Shown piece by piece: positions 2,461 to 64,000 of a stretch of DNA of 64,000 bases; within the stretch, counting starts at the first letter, position 1; each line of letters opens with the position of its first letter. The stretch spans positions 64,001 to 128,000 of the forward strand of contig JAHQWJ010000080.1 in assembly GCA_029856125.1 (NCBI GenBank). The letters are read 5' to 3'. The translations under genes were made by a program, and so were the position numbers. Under the pieces are notes generated by a model, which searched no databases, was not told where the DNA came from, and saw only the letters and a program-made list of their open reading frames with translations. Source of the DNA: Promethearchaeia archaeon. Its GTDB lineage: Archaea > Asgardarchaeota > Lokiarchaeia > Sigyniarchaeales > SOKP01.

Positions 2461-3672
2461 TTAAACTAAATCAGAAGGTAAGATCGGATTAATCAAAAGA
2501 TATCGAAAATCTTTAACAGAGGGGAATTCTCCATATTTATTTTTAATGATATTCATTCCGAGGTTATATGTGAAAACATTTTTTGAATATATTGGATCAT
2601 TGAGGCTTTTTATTTGATTTCTTAGGCTAGCTTCACCATAAATCTCAAAATCTTTTCCATATCTAATCAATTCCTCCTCGGTGTAATTATCAATAAGAGC
2701 GTGATAAGCAAAATTATACCAAAAAAGCGTAAGCTTATACCTTACTCTATTTTGCGCAATCATGGCGTCTAGGGAATCTTCTTTTGAAACATCCGGACAA
2801 AACTCGTTTAATCCAATTTCAACTTGTTCTCGATAAGAATAAAGCACATTTATAGCAAGATCTGCTATTCCTTCACTGATTATTAATTTAGGAGAATTAA
2901 GGAGTAAAATTGAGTGTTCGAATTGATTTAATTCCCGATACAATATCAGTTCTTTGACAGAAAATTCCGTATGATGTCCCGGATATCCTTCATGAGCAGT
3001 ATGCATTAGTAAAGTAGTCCAGTACATATTAAATTTCGGATTAAGTTCTAATCGGCTATTATAGTTACCCAAATACCATTCATAGCAAGTCCATTTTATC
3101 TTGTCTTCGTTTTTTTCTTGTGTTAAATCTAACAAAATTTGCTCATTTTCAGGTAAAAGATTTATAAACAACTCCTTTGTTCGCTTCTCTGTGATTTTAA
3201 GTGCTCTTTTAAAAAATTTAAAAACTTTTTCCTCAGGAACTCTACGTTTTAACCTTAATTTTTCGAATCGTTCTTCTAGGCTTCCAGTACCACCGTAAGC
3301 TTCGTTTACTTCTTCCTTTAAATTCTCCAACTCTACCTCTTTAACTGGGTGTAAAACTATATCATATAGGTGTAACAATTGTTCCTCAATAGAAATATTA
3401 TCCTGGTTTAAATTATCTAATGTTGTCCACATAGCAATTAACATCTTTTCTAAGTAGCGCTCGCGTTCTTTATTGAAGCTCTGTGAGTCTAATTTTTCGA
3501 GTAATGATTTAGAGTCGATTAACAGTTTTTTTGGAGAAATAATGGATTCGTTTTCAACAACTTGCTGAAATTTTTCTGGACCGTAATAAAAATCAACATA
3601 TCCTTTGATATGTTTATTGATGCGGAGCGCAAGAAGTAAAAAATCTTCACCAAACTTTGATAATTTTTTCAT
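2461..3672 (-). CDS. DUF885-like zincin metallopeptidase (paralog 1)
   Basis: HEGYPGHH, SEGIA and YNLG motifs typical of DUF885; full-length paralog of 61602..62813. Confidence 0.7.
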   Translation of the reverse strand: MKKLSKFGEDFLLLALRINKHIKGYVDFYYGPEKFQQVVENESIISPKKLLIDSKSLLEKLDSQSFNKERERYLEKMLIAMWTTLDNLNQDNISIEEQLLHLYDIVLHPVKEVELENLKEEVNEAYGGTGSLEERFEKLRLKRRVPEEKVFKFFKRALKITEKRTKELFINLLPENEQILLDLTQEKNEDKIKWTCYEWYLGNYNSRLELNPKFNMYWTTLLMHTAHEGYPGHHTEFSVKELILYRELNQFEHSILLLNSPKLIISEGIADLAINVLYSYREQVEIGLNEFCPDVSKEDSLDAMIAQNRVRYKLTLFWYNFAYHALIDNYTEEELIRYGKDFEIYGEASLRNQIKSLNDPIYSKNVFTYNLGMNIIKNKYGEFPSVKDFRYLLINPILPSDLV

Positions 3673-38704: not shown

Positions 38705-40198
<1,494 letters not shown>

Positions 40199-40696: not shown

Positions 40697-41908
40697 TTAT
40701 TTAGCAGTAACAATTTTAATTATATCATTATGTTTTAATTCATAGTTTTCTCCTAACCTTCTCTTTGTTCTAGCATCGATCCCAAAAATAAAGTGATCTG
40801 CTAAATCAGTATGGATTTTTTCTCTAACAAAATCTCTTAACAATGTACCTTTCTTTACCAAAAATGCGTCTGGTAAAATATTCCCTTTATTATCTGAAAA
40901 TTTATTAATATCAGATATTGGGTAAACACAAATTTGGTTTAATATTGAAAATACCGTAAAATTTAGTACTGCTTGAACACCTGTTTCATTAAAACGATTA
41001 ATGATCTTCTCTTGAATGCTTTTTAATCCTTCCAATTCATTATGATTGAATCCTTCATTATTTAAAATTCTAAAACTATCCGAACCAGGTATGTATTCGA
41101 TTTTCTTTTCTTGGTGATAAGTTTTTAGATAAAATTCTGCCAAAGCGCTACAAGGTATTATTTTCTCAGTATATTTTTTCTTCAATTTAGTGAAGTTTTC
41201 CATCCCATTTTCTCTATCAATTTTATTTGCTACGACGATGATAGGTTTTGATTTCTCTCTTAAAATTTTAGAAAAATTTAAAAGATCTTTATCTAACCAT
41301 AATGATGGATTTATATCTTCTAAATCAGGGGTTTTTAGAGCCTGATTGATTTGTTTTCTATTAATCTTTATACCAGAAAGTCTTTTATAAAGTTCCTCGA
41401 TAAAATTTTTTTTTTCCCGTGCGTGTGATTTCAGGAATTTATCCCAATCCTCTCTTTCTAATATCTGTTTAAACCACAGATTAATCTCTTTTTCAAGAAA
41501 TAAAATGTCATCGTAAGGATCATTTTCACCCATTTTTATTCTTTTACCCGTCTCATCTAAAGATCCACTAATGTCGATTATATGAATAAGAGCATCTGCT
41601 CTAATTAAATCGTTAAGGAATTGATTTCCTAACCCTTTTCCTTTATGGGCATCTGGAACCAATCCCGCTACATCGAGTACATTAACAGGAATAAAACGAT
41701 TTCCATTAACACAGTAAGAATTTTTTGGATTATCGTCAACATTCAAATCTTGGCAAACACACTTCGTTTTTATATACGCTACCCCTTTATTTGGTTCTAT
41801 CGTAGTAAAAGGTAACTCACTCACTTTAGCATTAGTTAAACAAGCAGCATTTAAAAAAGTCGACTTGCCTGCACTTGGTTTTCCAACTATACCTATTAAA
41901 AAAGTCAT
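40697..41908 (-). CDS. ychF: YchF/Ola1 ribosome-binding ATPase
   Basis: [42 protein letters not shown] tail. Confidence 0.93.
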
Positions 41909-44039: not shown

Positions 44040-45641
44040 ATGGCACAGTTATCTGGGGTACCTATCCTAATCTTAAAAGAAGGTGCAGAAAGAAAACAAG
44101 GAAAGGATGCCCAAAGAAATAATATAGCTGCAGCTAAAGCGGTAGCAGAAGCTGTAAGAACCACCCTAGGCCCAAAAGGAATGGATAAAATGCTCGTTGA
44201 TTCACTAGGAGATGTTACAATTACAAACGACGGAGCAACGATTCTTGATACAATTGATGTCGAACATCCCGCCGCAAAAATGATTGTAGAGGTTGCTAAA
44301 ACGCAAGATGATAAAGTTGGAGATGGAACAACCACAAGCGTAATCATCGCTGGAGAATTATTAAATCTTGCTGAAGAACTAATAGAACAAGGTGTACACC
44401 CATCCATTATTTTCAGAGGTTATCGAAAAGCTTTAGTAAAAGCTAAGCAAATATTACAAGATTTAGCAATAAAAGTTGAGAGCAATGACACTCAAACCCT
44501 AATAAAAGTAGCAGAGACCTCAATGAATAGCAAATTGATTGCGGGTGTTAAAAATCATTTTGCTGATATCGCAGTTAGAGCTGTAAGTCAAGTTAAAGAG
44601 GAAAGAGGCGGAAATATATTAATAGATTTAGATCAAATTCAAATTATCAAAAAAGCGGGAAAAAGCTTACTAGATACAAATTTGATCGAGGGGATCATTG
44701 TAGATAAAGAAATCGTACATCCTATGATGCCAAAATCTCTTAGAAACGCGAAGATTGCATTAATCAGCTCTTCTCTTGAGGTGGAAAAAACTGAATTTGA
44801 TGCTGAAATTAGAATACAAACACCTGATCAAATAAATAAGTTCCTCGAAGAAGAATCTAATATGTTAAAGTCTCGAGTAAATAAACTTAAGGATGTGGGT
44901 GCAAATGTTGTTTTTTGTCAGAAAGGCATTGACGACAAAGCTCAAAACTATCTCGCTCAAGAAAATATTATTACCATACGTAGAGTGAAACGTTCTGATA
45001 TGGAAAAACTTGCTCGAGCTACAAATGCAAAAATAATAAACAATATATTTGAAGTTACAAGCGACGATTTAGGAAAGGCTGGGAAAGTAGAAGAAAAGAA
45101 AATTGGTGATGATAATATGATTTTCGTTTCAGAATGTACCAATCCTAAAGCAGTTAGTATTTTAATAAGAGCAGGCATTGAACATGTAGTAGATGAGGCA
45201 GAAAGAATGCTTCATGATGCATTATCTGTAGTAAGGGCGGCGATTGAAAACCCATATATATTACCCGGTGGCGGTGCTTCTGAAATCGAGCTCGCTAAGC
45301 GTTTGAGGCCTTATGCACAGTCAATTGGTGGAAGAGAACAATTAGCAATCGAAGTTTATGCTAACGCCTTGGAAATTATCCCGAAAACTTTGGTTGAAAA
45401 TGCGGGTTATAACCCTGTTGATTTGATAGTTGAATTACGCTCAAAACACGAATCAGAATCTGGAAACTCATATGGAATAAATATGCGTTTAGGGAAACCG
45501 GATAATATGGAAAACCTGGGTATTATCGAGCCATTGATGATATTATCTCAAGCTATTCAATCAGCTACAGAAGTAGCTTCAATGATTTTAAAAATAGACG
45601 ATGTAATTGCTGCTTCCGGACTTTCAAAGGGTCACGATTAA
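44040..45641 (+). CDS. ths: Thermosome (group II chaperonin) subunit
   Basis: [37 protein letters not shown]. Confidence 0.97.
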
Positions 45642-59893: not shown

Positions 59894-60628
59894 ATGCGAG
59901 AACGTATCAGATTACTTGTAAGCCCTAAATCATTAGAAGAAGCTAAAGTTGTAGTTCAGCAAAAAGATGTAGACTATATTGATTGTAAGAACCCGGTTGA
60001 AGGTTCTTTAGGGGCTAATTTTCCGTGGATTATAAAGAAGATGAAGAATTTAATACCTCAAAACAGTTCTCAATTATTAAGTGCAACAATAGGAGACTTC
60101 CCAAATTTACCTGGATCAGCTTCTTTGGCCGCTCTTGGCGCTGCCGCATCCGGAGCTGATATTATTAAAATAGGACTTAAAGAATCAACGACAGAGGATG
60201 ATTGCGTCTACTTAATGAAAGGTGTCGTGAAAGCTGTAAAGAGCTATAATGCAAATATAAAAGTTGTAGTGGCCGGTTACGCAGACAGAATAAGGATGAA
60301 CACATCACCAGATTTTTTATTACTCCCGAAAATAGCAGCCAAATCTGGAGCCGATATAGTGATGCTTGATACTTTCATCAAAGATAGAAAAGGTTTATTT
60401 GACTTTTTAAGCGTTGAACAATTAAAGCTTTTTAAAAATAAAGCGAAAAAACTCAATCTAGAAGTCGCTTTAGCGGGATATTTAATGAAAGACTCCCTAC
60501 CAATGGTAAAAAAAATAATGCCCGATATTATTGGCGTAAGGAGTATCGTATGTGAAGGATATGACAGGAATAATGGGATTATTAGAGGACATCTCATAGA
60601 AGAGTTAAAAGCTGAATTATATGCCTAA
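59894..60628 (+). CDS. mfnB: 4-HFC-P synthase (methanofuran biosynthesis)
   Basis: LLVSP, DCKNP.EGSLGANFPW, SATIGD, KIGL, MLDT..KD. Confidence 0.9.
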   Translation: MRERIRLLVSPKSLEEAKVVVQQKDVDYIDCKNPVEGSLGANFPWIIKKMKNLIPQNSSQLLSATIGDFPNLPGSASLAALGAAASGADIIKIGLKESTTEDDCVYLMKGVVKAVKSYNANIKVVVAGYADRIRMNTSPDFLLLPKIAAKSGADIVMLDTFIKDRKGLFDFLSVEQLKLFKNKAKKLNLEVALAGYLMKDSLPMVKKIMPDIIGVRSIVCEGYDRNNGIIRGHLIEELKAELYA

Positions 60629-60721
60629 AACTTTAAAAAATAAATACTACGAATAACTAAATCCTCATATTTTTAGTTCATTTTAATAACATTAATTTGG
60701 TTACTCTGATGACTTGATATT

Positions 60722-61552
60722 ATGTACGAAAAGGAATTAGGAATAATTGGTGTTGGTAAAATTGGTTCTGCTCTCTTAAAAAGAATAATTTCTACTAATA
60801 CGATCGAGAGGAAAAAAATTATTATTTTTGATGTAGATGAAGAGAAATTGCACGATCTATCAAAAAGCTTAGATGTAGATTGTGCTAATAGTAATACCGA
60901 TTTAGTTAATTCATCTAAACATGTTTTAATTGCTGTTATCCCTCAAGTAATGGATATTGTTTTGAGAGAAATAGAACCTGCAATATCTGTACAGCATGTA
61001 ATAATATCTATTGCAGCAGGAGTTTCTTTTACTCATATAACTAAAATTATTACTAAACCTGTATCATTAATACGAATAATGACGAACACTCCAGCTCTTG
61101 TAGGCGAGGCAGCTACAGCGATAGCTCGTAACGAAAATGTCAAAGAATACCAACTAGAATTCGTTAAAGAAATATTCAATTCTGTAGGGATGGTAGTAGA
61201 ATTAGAAGAAAGACATTTAGACGCAGTAACTGGTTTATCTGGAAGCGGTCCTGCTTATATATTTATAATTATTGAAGCTTTAGCCGATGGGGGTGTAAAA
61301 ATGGGCTTACCTAGGGCTATTGCCCTAAAACTAGCAGCTCAAACCCTTTTAGGTTCTGCAAAACTTCTATTGGAAACTAACATACACCCCGCAGCACTGA
61401 AAGATATGGTAGCAACTCCAGGAGGGACGACTATAACTGCAATACACGAACTTGAATCTGCAAAAATAAGAGCAACACTAATCAGAGCGGTGGAAGCAGC
61501 TACATTAAAATCCAAATCGTTAAATTCAGCAAAAACAAATAATAATCAATAA
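60722..61552 (+). CDS. proC: Pyrroline-5-carboxylate reductase
   Basis: GIIGVGKIG, ISIAAG, RIM.NTPA, GLSGSGPAY, TPGGTTI. Confidence 0.95.
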   Translation: MYEKELGIIGVGKIGSALLKRIISTNTIERKKIIIFDVDEEKLHDLSKSLDVDCANSNTDLVNSSKHVLIAVIPQVMDIVLREIEPAISVQHVIISIAAGVSFTHITKIITKPVSLIRIMTNTPALVGEAATAIARNENVKEYQLEFVKEIFNSVGMVVELEERHLDAVTGLSGSGPAYIFIIIEALADGGVKMGLPRAIALKLAAQTLLGSAKLLLETNIHPAALKDMVATPGGTTITAIHELESAKIRATLIRAVEAATLKSKSLNSAKTNNNQ

Positions 61553-61601: not shown

Positions 61602-62813
61602 ATGGTAAAAATATCCAAGTTTGGAGAAGATTTTTTACTACTGGCACTCAGAATTGACAAACATATTAAAGGATATGTTGATTTTTATATTGGTCCAGAA
61701 AAACTCCGGCAAATTGTAGATCGTGAATCTCTAACAGCTCCAAACACGTTATTAAATGACTCCACCAATTTAATAAAACAAGTGGGAGCTCAAGGTTACG
61801 ACAAAGAACGCGAACGGTATATCGAAAAGTTATTAGTAGCTATGAAAACCTCAATAGAAATTTTAAAAGGTTCTGAAATTTCTATTAAAGATCAATTTTT
61901 AAAACTTTATGATGTAGATTTACAACCTGCTAAAGAAGCGGAGTTGGATAATGTAAAGGAAGAGATTGATGAAGCTTACAAAGGATCTGGAAGCTTAGAA
62001 GAACGCATGAATAAATTAAGAATTACTCGTAAAGTTCCTGAATCAAAGGTTTTTAAATTCTTTAAAAAAGCAGTTGACATAACAGAAAAAAAAACTAATG
62101 AATTATTCATCGATCTATTACCAAAAAATGAAAGAATAATTATAGATATAGTAAAAAATAATAATTCAAGCGAAAAAGTAAAATGGAGCTGCTATAATTG
62201 GTACTTGGGTAAATATGTTAGTCGAATTGAGGTTAATCCTAAATACCAAATGTATTGGACTGCTTTATTAACATTTTCCTCTCATGAAACATATCCTGGA
62301 CATCATACTGAGTTTGCTATAAAGGAAGAGAGGCTTTATCGCAAGTTAAACCAATTTGAACATTCCATCTTAATTCTCCATTCGCCAAAATTAGTGATTT
62401 CTGAGGGAATCGCCAAAAAAGCAATTTCTATACTCTTTTCAAATCAAGAAGTAGCAGAAATTGGGTTAAATGAATTTTGTTCAGATCCATTAAAAGAGGC
62501 CTCTCTTGAAGAGTTGGAGCTACAAGATATAGTAAAAGTCAAAATTCCTCTTTTTTGGTACAATTTTGCATATCATGCTTTAGTTGATAAGTATAATAAG
62601 AAAGAACTAATGCGATATGGAAAAAATTTTGAAATTTTTAGTGATGAAGATTTGATTACAGGAATAGAAAGAATGTCAAATCCCGCACATTCAAGTAACG
62701 CTTTTATGTATTACCTTGGAATTAATATTTTACAGAAATATGGAGATGTTCCTTCATTAAAAGACTTTCGAAATTTACTCGTTAATCCAATTTTACCATC
62801 TGATTTAATTTAA
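61602..62813 (+). CDS. DUF885-like zincin metallopeptidase (paralog 2)
   Basis: HETYPGHH, SEGIA, YYLG; paralog of 2461..3672. Confidence 0.7.
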   Translation: MVKISKFGEDFLLLALRIDKHIKGYVDFYIGPEKLRQIVDRESLTAPNTLLNDSTNLIKQVGAQGYDKERERYIEKLLVAMKTSIEILKGSEISIKDQFLKLYDVDLQPAKEAELDNVKEEIDEAYKGSGSLEERMNKLRITRKVPESKVFKFFKKAVDITEKKTNELFIDLLPKNERIIIDIVKNNNSSEKVKWSCYNWYLGKYVSRIEVNPKYQMYWTALLTFSSHETYPGHHTEFAIKEERLYRKLNQFEHSILILHSPKLVISEGIAKKAISILFSNQEVAEIGLNEFCSDPLKEASLEELELQDIVKVKIPLFWYNFAYHALVDKYNKKELMRYGKNFEIFSDEDLITGIERMSNPAHSSNAFMYYLGINILQKYGDVPSLKDFRNLLVNPILPSDLI

Positions 62814-63017
62814 CACTATTCTTATAGCCCTTTTAAAGTTTGATGGTTACAAAAGAGTATTTTTAAGTTTCTGAATAAGGGAATTTACTAATTTTTATTG
62901 CAGTTTAAATAAACTATTTGAAATTATAATGTGTAATAAGAAGAAGTGTTTTAGATTCGTATTCGAACTTCTAAGAATAGGTTAAAAACATTTAAATTTA
63001 TATATAAGGTGAAAAAA

Positions 63018-63047
63018 ATGCCTGGTCAAGCTGGCGGGATACCCTAA
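63018..63047 (+). CDS. Micro-peptide MPGQAGGIP (9 aa)
   Basis: AAGGTGA SD, ATG CCT GGT CAA GCT GGC GGG ATA CCC TAA, hairpin and T-tract. Confidence 0.7.
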   Translation: MPGQAGGIP

Positions 63048-63049
63048 AC

Positions 63050-63122
63050 TGGTGCTGTTTATAAGAGTAATTTACTCGAGTGCTCTTTATAAACCCACCA
63101 TTTATTTTTCTTCCTTTTTTTT
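63050..63122 (+). terminator. Hairpin plus T-tract
   Basis: TGGTG.GTTTATAAGAG...CTCTTTATAAAC.CACCA then TTTATTTTTCTTCCTTTTTT. Confidence 0.65.
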
Positions 63123-63380
63123 AGGGCTTTAAATAAATTTTTTGAATTAATATTTTGATTTAAAAATTTTAAAATTTAAAGTAATTAAAATTAAAGCCTT
63201 AAATAGGATTAACAGATTAACTAATTCTTACTGTTCACTTTTCATTTTGTTAGGAGTTTATATAATCTTTTTCAAATTATAAATTGATTAAGAAAATGGT
63301 TCTGAATGTTTCTATTCAGCTTTAAAACTATAAATTAACTAAGTTAAGCATATTGCACTTATAATTAAAAGTGAGATAAA

Positions 63381-63413
63381 ATGCCTGGTGAATCAGACTC
63401 TATTCCAAAATAG
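63381..63413 (+). CDS. Micro-peptide MPGESDSIPK (10 aa)
   Basis: GTGAG SD-like, ATG CCT GGT GAA TCA GAC TCT ATT CCA AAA TAG, GATGTTT/AAACATC hairpin and T-tract. Confidence 0.6.
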   Translation: MPGESDSIPK

Positions 63414-63752
63414 ATGTTTTATATATAAACATCATATACTTCCTTTTTTTTCTTTAAAATTTATAATTTTTTTTACAATTAATTTCTAACCAAAATGTAC
63501 ACTGAATGGTCTAATTGGTTTACTTTAATTTTTATTATATCCAATTTATGTAAATAATTTAATAATTTTTGGCGGTTACAAAGGAGGATATTTAAATCCT
63601 AAAACTTGTTGACTGTGTAAATTTTATTGAAGTTTAAATAAACTTTTTAAAATTAGAATGTGTAAGAGAAAAAAGTGATTTGGATTCGTAATCCAAATTT
63701 GACTTCTAAGTATAGGTTAAAAACATTTAAATTTATATATAAGGTGGTTAAA

Positions 63753-63782
63753 ATGCCTGGTCAAGCTGGCGGTATACCCTAA
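63753..63782 (+). CDS. Micro-peptide MPGQAGGIP (9 aa), second copy
   Basis: AAGGTGG SD, one synonymous change (GGG>GGT) relative to the 63018 copy, hairpin and T-tract. Confidence 0.7.
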   Translation: MPGQAGGIP

Positions 63783-64000
63783 ACTGGTGTTTTTTATAAG
63801 AGCACTCCAAGATAGTGTTTTTATAAAAGTATCATATATTTTCTTTTCTTTTTCCTTTAAAATTAATTGTTTCTTGATTGTTTATTGTTAGAGTAAATGT
63901 TTTGATTTCAGGTTTATATGTGTTAAATATTTCATATACTTCCTTTTCTTTTTCGCTTTTGCAAAAAGCATACACTGAACGCCCTAATTGATTCATGCTT

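Follow-up and report, generated by a model that had tools for sequence, protein, structure and literature searches.

What is a metallopeptidase gene doing beside a series of genes that would encode peptides of only nine or ten residues? The question is raised by a window of 64,000 nucleotides, the whole stretch of DNA that was analyzed, which is part of contig C84 of a 3.7-Mb genome. The initial annotation had placed the host among the Asgard archaea, and it does belong to the Lokiarchaeia (Promethearchaeota). A 403-aa protein, assigned from Pfam, model fold, and conserved residues to the gluzincin peptidases with a DUF885 fold, is encoded at 61602-62813 on the forward strand. Three micro-ORFs follow it on the same strand and start exactly where they had first been located: 63018-63047 (MPGQAGGIP, with a Shine-Dalgarno [SD] site at 63006-63012), 63381-63413 (MPGESDSIPK, with one residue after Pro9), and 63753-63782, which encodes the same peptide as the first. 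Near the other end of the window, the minus strand encodes a further peptidase of 403 aa at 2461-3672, a paralogue with 60% identity. It is followed by the fourth family member that had been proposed there, MPGHPGAVP (2274-2245, minus strand), in a unit spanning 2170-2395 that has its own TATA box, SD site, hairpin, and T-tract. One further ORF of 403 aa (40697-41908) was rejected as a paralogue, since Pfam identifies it as an Obg-like GTPase. The genes directly upstream of the peptidase, mfnB (4-HFC-P synthase) and proC (59894-61552), and the convergent kinase-like gene downstream of the cassette look like housekeeping neighbors. Contig C84 also carries two tRNA-like genes, seemingly with introns, at 44867-44998 and 129965-130085.

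Each micro-gene is organized as a complete unit, with its own TATA box, SD-like site, stop codon at or one residue past Pro9, hairpin, and T-tract. The TATA boxes, an element absent from the initial annotation, lie about 115-125 nt upstream of all four ORFs, at 62904-62911, 63257-63264, 63633-63640, and 2395 on the minus strand; the box AGTTTAAATA is kept at -110 to -140 in about 67 micro-gene units. Folding places a hairpin and T-tract, which may serve as terminator or 3' protection, at 63050-63123, 63414-63455, and 63785-63860. The SD-like site, stop, hairpin, and T-tract that had been attributed to every unit are present, with the reservation that unit 2 is weak: its match to the host 16S tail (GATCACCTCC, at window position 40187) is only GTGA, compared with AGGTGA in unit 1 and AGGTG in unit 3, and its short hairpin has only six AT-rich pairs. 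Units 1 and 3 derive from a 735-nt duplication. Their ORFs differ by a single synonymous base, as had been noticed (97% identity), but the accompanying statement that their flanks have clearly diverged holds only farther out, with 78% identity over 150 nt upstream and 73% over 70 nt downstream; over the nearest 50 nt upstream the identity is 92%, and this pair alone is therefore weak evidence. At 63924-63993 on the forward strand, repeat families D5 and D11 mark what is probably left of another copy of unit 2, with its terminator and the flank beyond but without the ORF; no ORF was found past the window end. The layout is not that of a leader peptide or attenuator, since the units lie downstream of the peptidase, each with a separate terminator, and the gene beyond them is convergent. 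Peptides of the MPGQAGGIP type also occur behind peptidase orthologues in four other genomes.

Could such short ORFs be genes? A scan of this genome for intergenic ORFs of 7 to 16 aa with an SD site and a T-tract, in which proline was not required, returned 32 candidates. Seven of these start with M-P, and all 7 carry Pro at position 9; the genome has seven peptide genes. Genus-wide, the DNA pattern gave 97 matches, versus 7 with a reversed-pattern control. The peptidase-linked set from relatives comprises 69 distinct ORFs encoding 65 peptides of the form M-P-G-x5-P, with ATG (63), TTG (4), or GTG (2) as start codon; 66 end right after Pro9 and three have one extra residue. Positions 4 to 8 are hypervariable between fixed ends, as in a precursor with a variable core. 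The codons of Pro2 and Pro9 vary almost wholly at the third position. The test of synonymous against nonsynonymous change that had been recommended came out on the coding side rather than that of an RNA or DNA motif, with 91 differences between close pairs at codon position 3 versus 34 and 37 at the other two. All 63 matches of the 30-nt class are stop free and keep this length, although the pattern search used no open-frame filter; column shuffles place a stop in an expected 5.6 of 69. Fixed length, stop-free frames, alternative starts, and wobble-confined variation point to coding with a diversifying core. The micro-ORFs thus behave as coding genes, which would be translated into peptides of 9-10 residues and have escaped annotation. 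One could still propose that the units are noncoding RNAs or DNA repeats in which the ORF is incidental, given the strong 3' hairpin of each unit (median z about -2) and the GC-rich 30-nt core within AT-rich DNA. These same codon patterns and the fusion of the same peptide tail to signal peptides elsewhere argue against that proposal, which we find scarcely credible. Rfam covariance models gave no match up to an E value of 1 in 62800-64000. At one locus without a peptidase (L062, G003:C174:1053-1082), codon 6 of the peptide gene is an in-frame TGA, and this copy is likely a pseudogene.

The enzyme was initially described as a DUF885-like metallopeptidase, and its predicted fold and intact catalytic residues agree with this description. 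The two paralogues score 19.9 and 17.1 bits against Pfam DUF885 (PF05960; E = 6.6e-4), below the gathering score of 32.4 bits. The model (pLDDT 75) matches the DUF885 structures 3iuk (Z = 17.4, rmsd 4.5, 354 residues aligned), 3u24 (Z = 16.5), and 3o0y (Z = 14.7; Foldseek E = 2.5e-5), followed by M3, M32, ACE, and MATCAP. It is thus a DUF885 protein only by fold, not by Pfam score. The likeness to M32 carboxypeptidases is likewise one of fold (Z = 11-12), as Pfam and NCBIfam gave no match to them; the family profile had no match among PDB sequences. H228, E229, H234, H235, E268, and Y370 are invariant in the 103 homologues scored. They include the gluzincin His-Glu, His, and downstream Glu (the third ligand), spaced as HExxxxH(H) rather than as the canonical HExxH. 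We found no hydrophobic, signal, or membrane segment in the sequence, and the M3, M32, and ACE-type fold matches act on short peptides. The protein is probably an active cytoplasmic peptidase, and to judge from its fold it may act on short peptides as well. It occurs in 37 of 135 family genomes, in two genera, with up to 10 paralogues per genome, and more distant relatives are common among bacteria and in other groups of Asgard archaea. A record titled as an actinobacterial Nanopelagicaceae MAG (L031, L038, and L055) contains a 92%-identical peptidase and is placed in the same archaeal genus, and its title is probably mistaken.

The association between enzyme and peptides can be followed along the peptidase family. 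Counting micro-ORFs within 1.15 kb downstream of a homologue, we found them at 40 of 41 loci with at least 55% identity, at 3/3 with 45 to 55%, at 10/23 with 33 to 45%, and at 0/31 below 33%. The downstream scan of homologues that the initial annotation had called for thus finds the linkage kept across two genera, and at many unrelated chromosomal sites, with one to three micro-genes beside each of the 40 close homologues that have them. The tree separates a co-oriented clade, a convergent clade (35 to 41% identity) whose peptides begin with M-P-H, and a peptide-less clade; both peptide-carrying clades are from Lokiarchaeia. The last of the three, also from Lokiarchaeia, and the distant homologues (<33%, mostly metagenomic) yielded no micro-ORF when filtered for the Lokiarchaeia pattern; other peptide types beside distant homologues would escape this filter. 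These cases indicate that association with peptides is not an intrinsic property of the enzyme family. Only 1 of 41 close peptidases lacks a peptide, and peptide genes often persist after loss of the peptidase, as at L063, L069, L085, and position 44634 of contig C84. At the latter site, outside the window, an intact peptide gene converges on a truncated peptidase remnant (44472-44663, about 45 homologous residues); here the peptide gene has outlasted a deletion of the enzyme. Three relatives (L068, L072, and L076) have a peptide gene converging on one or two 455-aa unknown proteins, accompanied by a stand-alone PEP-utilizer mobile domain and a PPDK-type ATP-binding protein, a split phosphotransferase-like set. 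The peptide-less clade lies behind a SAM methyltransferase gene and divergent from a B12-radical SAM gene (L258-L260 and L430). In three sister-genus genomes (L258-L260), a peptidase gene and an MFS gene share a contig, but about 10 kb of DNA with unrelated genes and without a peptide gene separates them, and we do not regard the two as a cluster.

The genus-wide search also revealed family peptides away from any peptidase, many of them upstream of an MFS transporter gene and head-to-head with the gene of a 1,200-aa protein. This protein is present in 118 of the 135 family genomes, and most of its close homologues have a head-to-head peptide gene. The genome studied here has this core locus on contig C25, with the 1,200-aa protein divergent from a peptide gene that precedes the transporter; the D-x-I-P-K end of the peptide of micro-ORF 2 resembles the peptide encoded there. 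Two further peptide genes converge, one on a second MFS gene and the other on the truncated peptidase remnant. Contigs C25 and C136 (L266:7512 and L267:5423) carry core-type peptide genes that are nearly identical, one encoding a final Lys and the other not; the C136 copy adjoins the second MFS gene and a remnant, 41 residues long, of the gene for the 1,200-aa protein. Neither Pfam (28 members), NCBIfam, nor Foldseek gave a name for the large protein. Its predicted model, which is unreliable at residues 840 to 958, matches zinc peptidases with middling scores at residues 15 to 268 (Z = 7-8), with LREAY in place of HExxH; the rest consists of several wHTH/RAM modules of the Lrp type (NirDL, Z = 13.9). 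An Atlas match to AsnC-type regulators (0.81) is a lead only. The fold thus suggests a regulator-like protein. A complex prediction for the N-terminal domain of one homologue and its 38-aa precursor scored 0.01, which counts neither way.

Does the peptide leave the cell? Beside distant homologues of the 1,200-aa protein, the Gly-rich, Pro-ended tail forms the end of precursors of 36 to 48 aa that have a signal-like hydrophobic stretch. Two to four of these precursors sometimes form an array, and the tail is also repeated in multicore precursors. An MFS homologue lies within 6 kb of 42 of the 51 leaderless loci but of none of the 23 signal-peptide loci, with the caveat that the 6-kb cutoff and the peptide filters were chosen after the data were seen. 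Eight genomes contain loci of both kinds. A common tail that is leaderless with an MFS transporter and borne by a signal peptide without one suggests that the peptide is probably exported, and these two alternative routes are the best support for it. The genome also encodes five Opp/Dpp-type ATPase pairs.

Two comparisons tie the peptidase cassettes to the core locus. The peptidase is present in 23 of 43 genomes with only leaderless loci and in 0 of 11 with only signal-peptide loci, and core and peptidase-linked peptides share 29 identities within genomes versus 19 across genomes (P < 1e-4); the genomes are kin, so both tests are inflated and P values overstated. In one genome, core and peptidase-linked peptides have identical last four residues while codons and flanks differ. 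From these sequence comparisons, we regard the peptidase-peptide pair as a satellite of a family-wide Lokiarchaeia core locus. In the simplest reading, the cassettes would make extra variants of the core signal and supply an enzyme acting on them. The peptidase/precursor pair proposed at the outset thus survives as a linkage but not as a self-contained system, since the same peptide family occurs at the core locus and in signal-peptide precursors.

We favor, with a probability of roughly 0.55, a reading in which the peptides are exported signals and the peptidase is dedicated to trimming or destroying them. The micro-ORFs would be stand-alone genes for short linear peptides, extra and diversified members of the core-locus family, recognized mainly via the Gly-rich stretch and the C-terminal Pro. 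Synthesized without a leader, and probably losing their Met under the general methionine-aminopeptidase rule, they would be exported by the MFS transporter, as gene context suggests, and might re-enter through Opp/Dpp-type importers. Inside the cell, they could bind the 1,200-aa Lrp-type protein at its zinc-less zincin domain and thereby alter transcription. The DUF885-fold enzyme would be a cytoplasmic oligo- or carboxypeptidase dedicated to these peptides, most likely cutting their C-terminal end to trim or destroy them, with each paralogue traveling with its own variants. The cut is proposed by analogy with PepO, a quenching peptidase that degrades the SHP peptides of streptococci (PMC4873490). 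More broadly, the odds seem evenly balanced that Lokiarchaeia have evolved a peptide communication system independently. Its strain-specific signals would be leaderless with MFS export, borne by a signal peptide, or contained in multicore precursors; a single chain combining a dead zincin with Lrp modules would be the receptor; and an expandable set of peptidase-peptide cassettes would serve to edit, quench, or jam the signal. That most genomes with a core locus lack the peptidase (37/135 have one) counts against our preferred reading.

Part of the evidence would fit a different relation between the neighbors, in which the peptides would inhibit or regulate the cognate peptidase encoded next to them, following a Rap-Phr or antidote logic. 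We consider this, the main alternative, rather unlikely, also in its detailed form, in which poorly cleavable, Pro-ended product mimics would occupy the cleft and the real substrate would be another, such as the core signal. That up to 10 enzyme paralogues in a genome each have their own peptides speaks for it, and the asymmetry by which peptide genes outlive the enzyme while almost no close enzyme is without a peptide fits it equally well. The variable orientation, which shows that the linkage does not serve cotranscription, is also in its favor. Angiotensin 1-7 ends in Pro, and Pro-ended peptides inhibit ACE. An M32 enzyme that cut ACE2 substrates left Ang 1-7 untouched (PMC7044196). Yet one enzyme is often paired with two or three quite different peptides, and the family is present in many peptidase-free genomes, so that inhibition cannot be its original role. 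If the linkage involved no direct contact at all, the enzyme being a general oligopeptidase that shares one regulon with the peptide genes and was duplicated along with them, the separate promoter and terminator of every peptide gene and the existence of peptide-less enzyme clades would be readily understood. The pairing has nevertheless persisted in two clades, whether co-oriented or convergent, and at many chromosomal sites unrelated to one another, which makes this explanation very improbable.

The enzyme might instead tailor the peptide, by trimming, transpeptidation or cyclization, or nonhydrolytic chemistry, and the result would be a product for export, for instance an antimicrobial, as in a minimal RiPP pathway. 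A core that is hypervariable while its ends are fixed would suit such a product, and MFS export recalls microcin C. In other genera, genes for B12-radical SAM enzymes, YcaO (with Cys-containing multicore precursors), or ThiF and a methyltransferase lie between peptide and transporter. Two such loci (L427 and L428) encode three-core Cys precursors with short Arg-containing linkers beside a YcaO gene and an MFS gene, a candidate azoline-containing RiPP; in six others (L423-L426, L273, and L429), B12-binding/radical-SAM or ThiF and methyltransferase genes separate the giant protein from the MFS gene. The product of some core loci may therefore be modified rather than a plain linear signal, so modified products would exist within the peptide family in other genera. 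That the peptidase fills the place of these radical-SAM, YcaO, or ThiF enzymes seems doubtful to us, and tailoring as its general role improbable. The peptidase loci lack a leader, a follower, and an ATP-dependent ligase; a follower after the core Pro of the MSDIN/POPB or cyanobactin type is precluded by the stop directly after Pro9 in 66/69 ORFs. Position 2, moreover, may be Phe, Tyr, Ile, or Asn besides Pro across the family, the signal-peptide forms have no adjoining tailoring gene in the stretches read, and the enzyme retains the standard hydrolytic His-Glu/His/Glu set. The missing follower and ligase and the inconstant Pro2 disfavor cyclization and weaken the initial idea of a Pro-bounded, cyclized peptide.

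If the broader reading of an independent peptide communication system is true, this would be the first defined peptide signaling circuit in Asgard archaea. These archaea are close relatives of eukaryotes, and the molecular basis of archaeal cell-to-cell signaling is barely known. Work on Haloferax from 2025 notes how little is known of such signaling and characterizes the signal it studied no further than as a small molecule (PMC12240190). Defined ligands, an exporter, a candidate receptor, and a peptidase would make archaeal signaling testable without cultures, using synthetic 8- to 10-mers and purified proteins. A literature search, in which few subscription papers were covered, found no published account of the cassette or the core locus, and none of an established DUF885 substrate. 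The link between peptidase cassette and core locus and the split between MFS and signal peptide are, as far as we can tell, added by this analysis. The larger system of giant regulator-like protein, exporter, and peptide looks like an unpublished one that resembles a chemical signaling language. It would give a DUF885-fold enzyme its first concrete substrate hypothesis and reveal a class of genes wholly overlooked by annotation, with 7 in this genome and about 18 in another.

How does the system compare with known ones? The enzyme shares the gluzincin fold of the DUF885 structures (3iuk, 3u24, and 3o0y), M32, M3, ACE/ACE2, and MATCAP (330 to 367 residues aligned, Z = 17.4 to 10), and has the metal ligands of the DUF885/M32/M3/ACE group, but it is shorter (400 versus 550-600 aa), only 8 to 15% identical, and under the Pfam cutoff. 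The wHTH and RAM modules of the 1,200-aa partner are those of Lrp/AsnC and NirDL/AhbAB; here, in contrast, several are joined in one chain behind a peptidase-like domain, and the gene lies outside the window. Microcin C likewise has a very short leaderless precursor, an MFS exporter, and a peptidase, and some core loci share tailoring genes with archaeal YcaO and radical-SAM RiPP clusters (PMC12144867). Unlike these systems, the loci of the window have no adenylating or other tailoring enzyme, many peptide variants occur per genome, and the partner is a giant regulator-like protein. With the RRNPP systems (Rgg-SHP, PlcR-PapR, and Rap-Phr), the likeness is in the tiny peptide gene beside a cytoplasmic protein that is a regulator to judge from its fold, in the proposed export, in the many diversified variants, and in a zinc peptidase by which the signal could be terminated. 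The differences are the archaeal host, the candidate MFS exporter, the peptidase physically paired with extra peptide genes, and a candidate receptor made of a zinc-less zincin and Lrp modules, with no TPR match by Pfam over 28 members or among the fold matches outside residues 840-958. In the RopB-SIP system of Streptococcus pyogenes, an eight-residue leaderless peptide is secreted, reimported, and bound by an intracellular regulator (PMC6565748). The two are unrelated in sequence and fold, and SIP has neither a paired peptidase array nor a signal-peptide form. The short leaderless peptide is nevertheless common to both, and secretion, reimport, and regulator binding are what we propose for the Asgard system. 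By analogy, then, and with no part found to be homologous, this system may work as the RRNPP systems do, with leaderless RopB-SIP as its closest counterpart.
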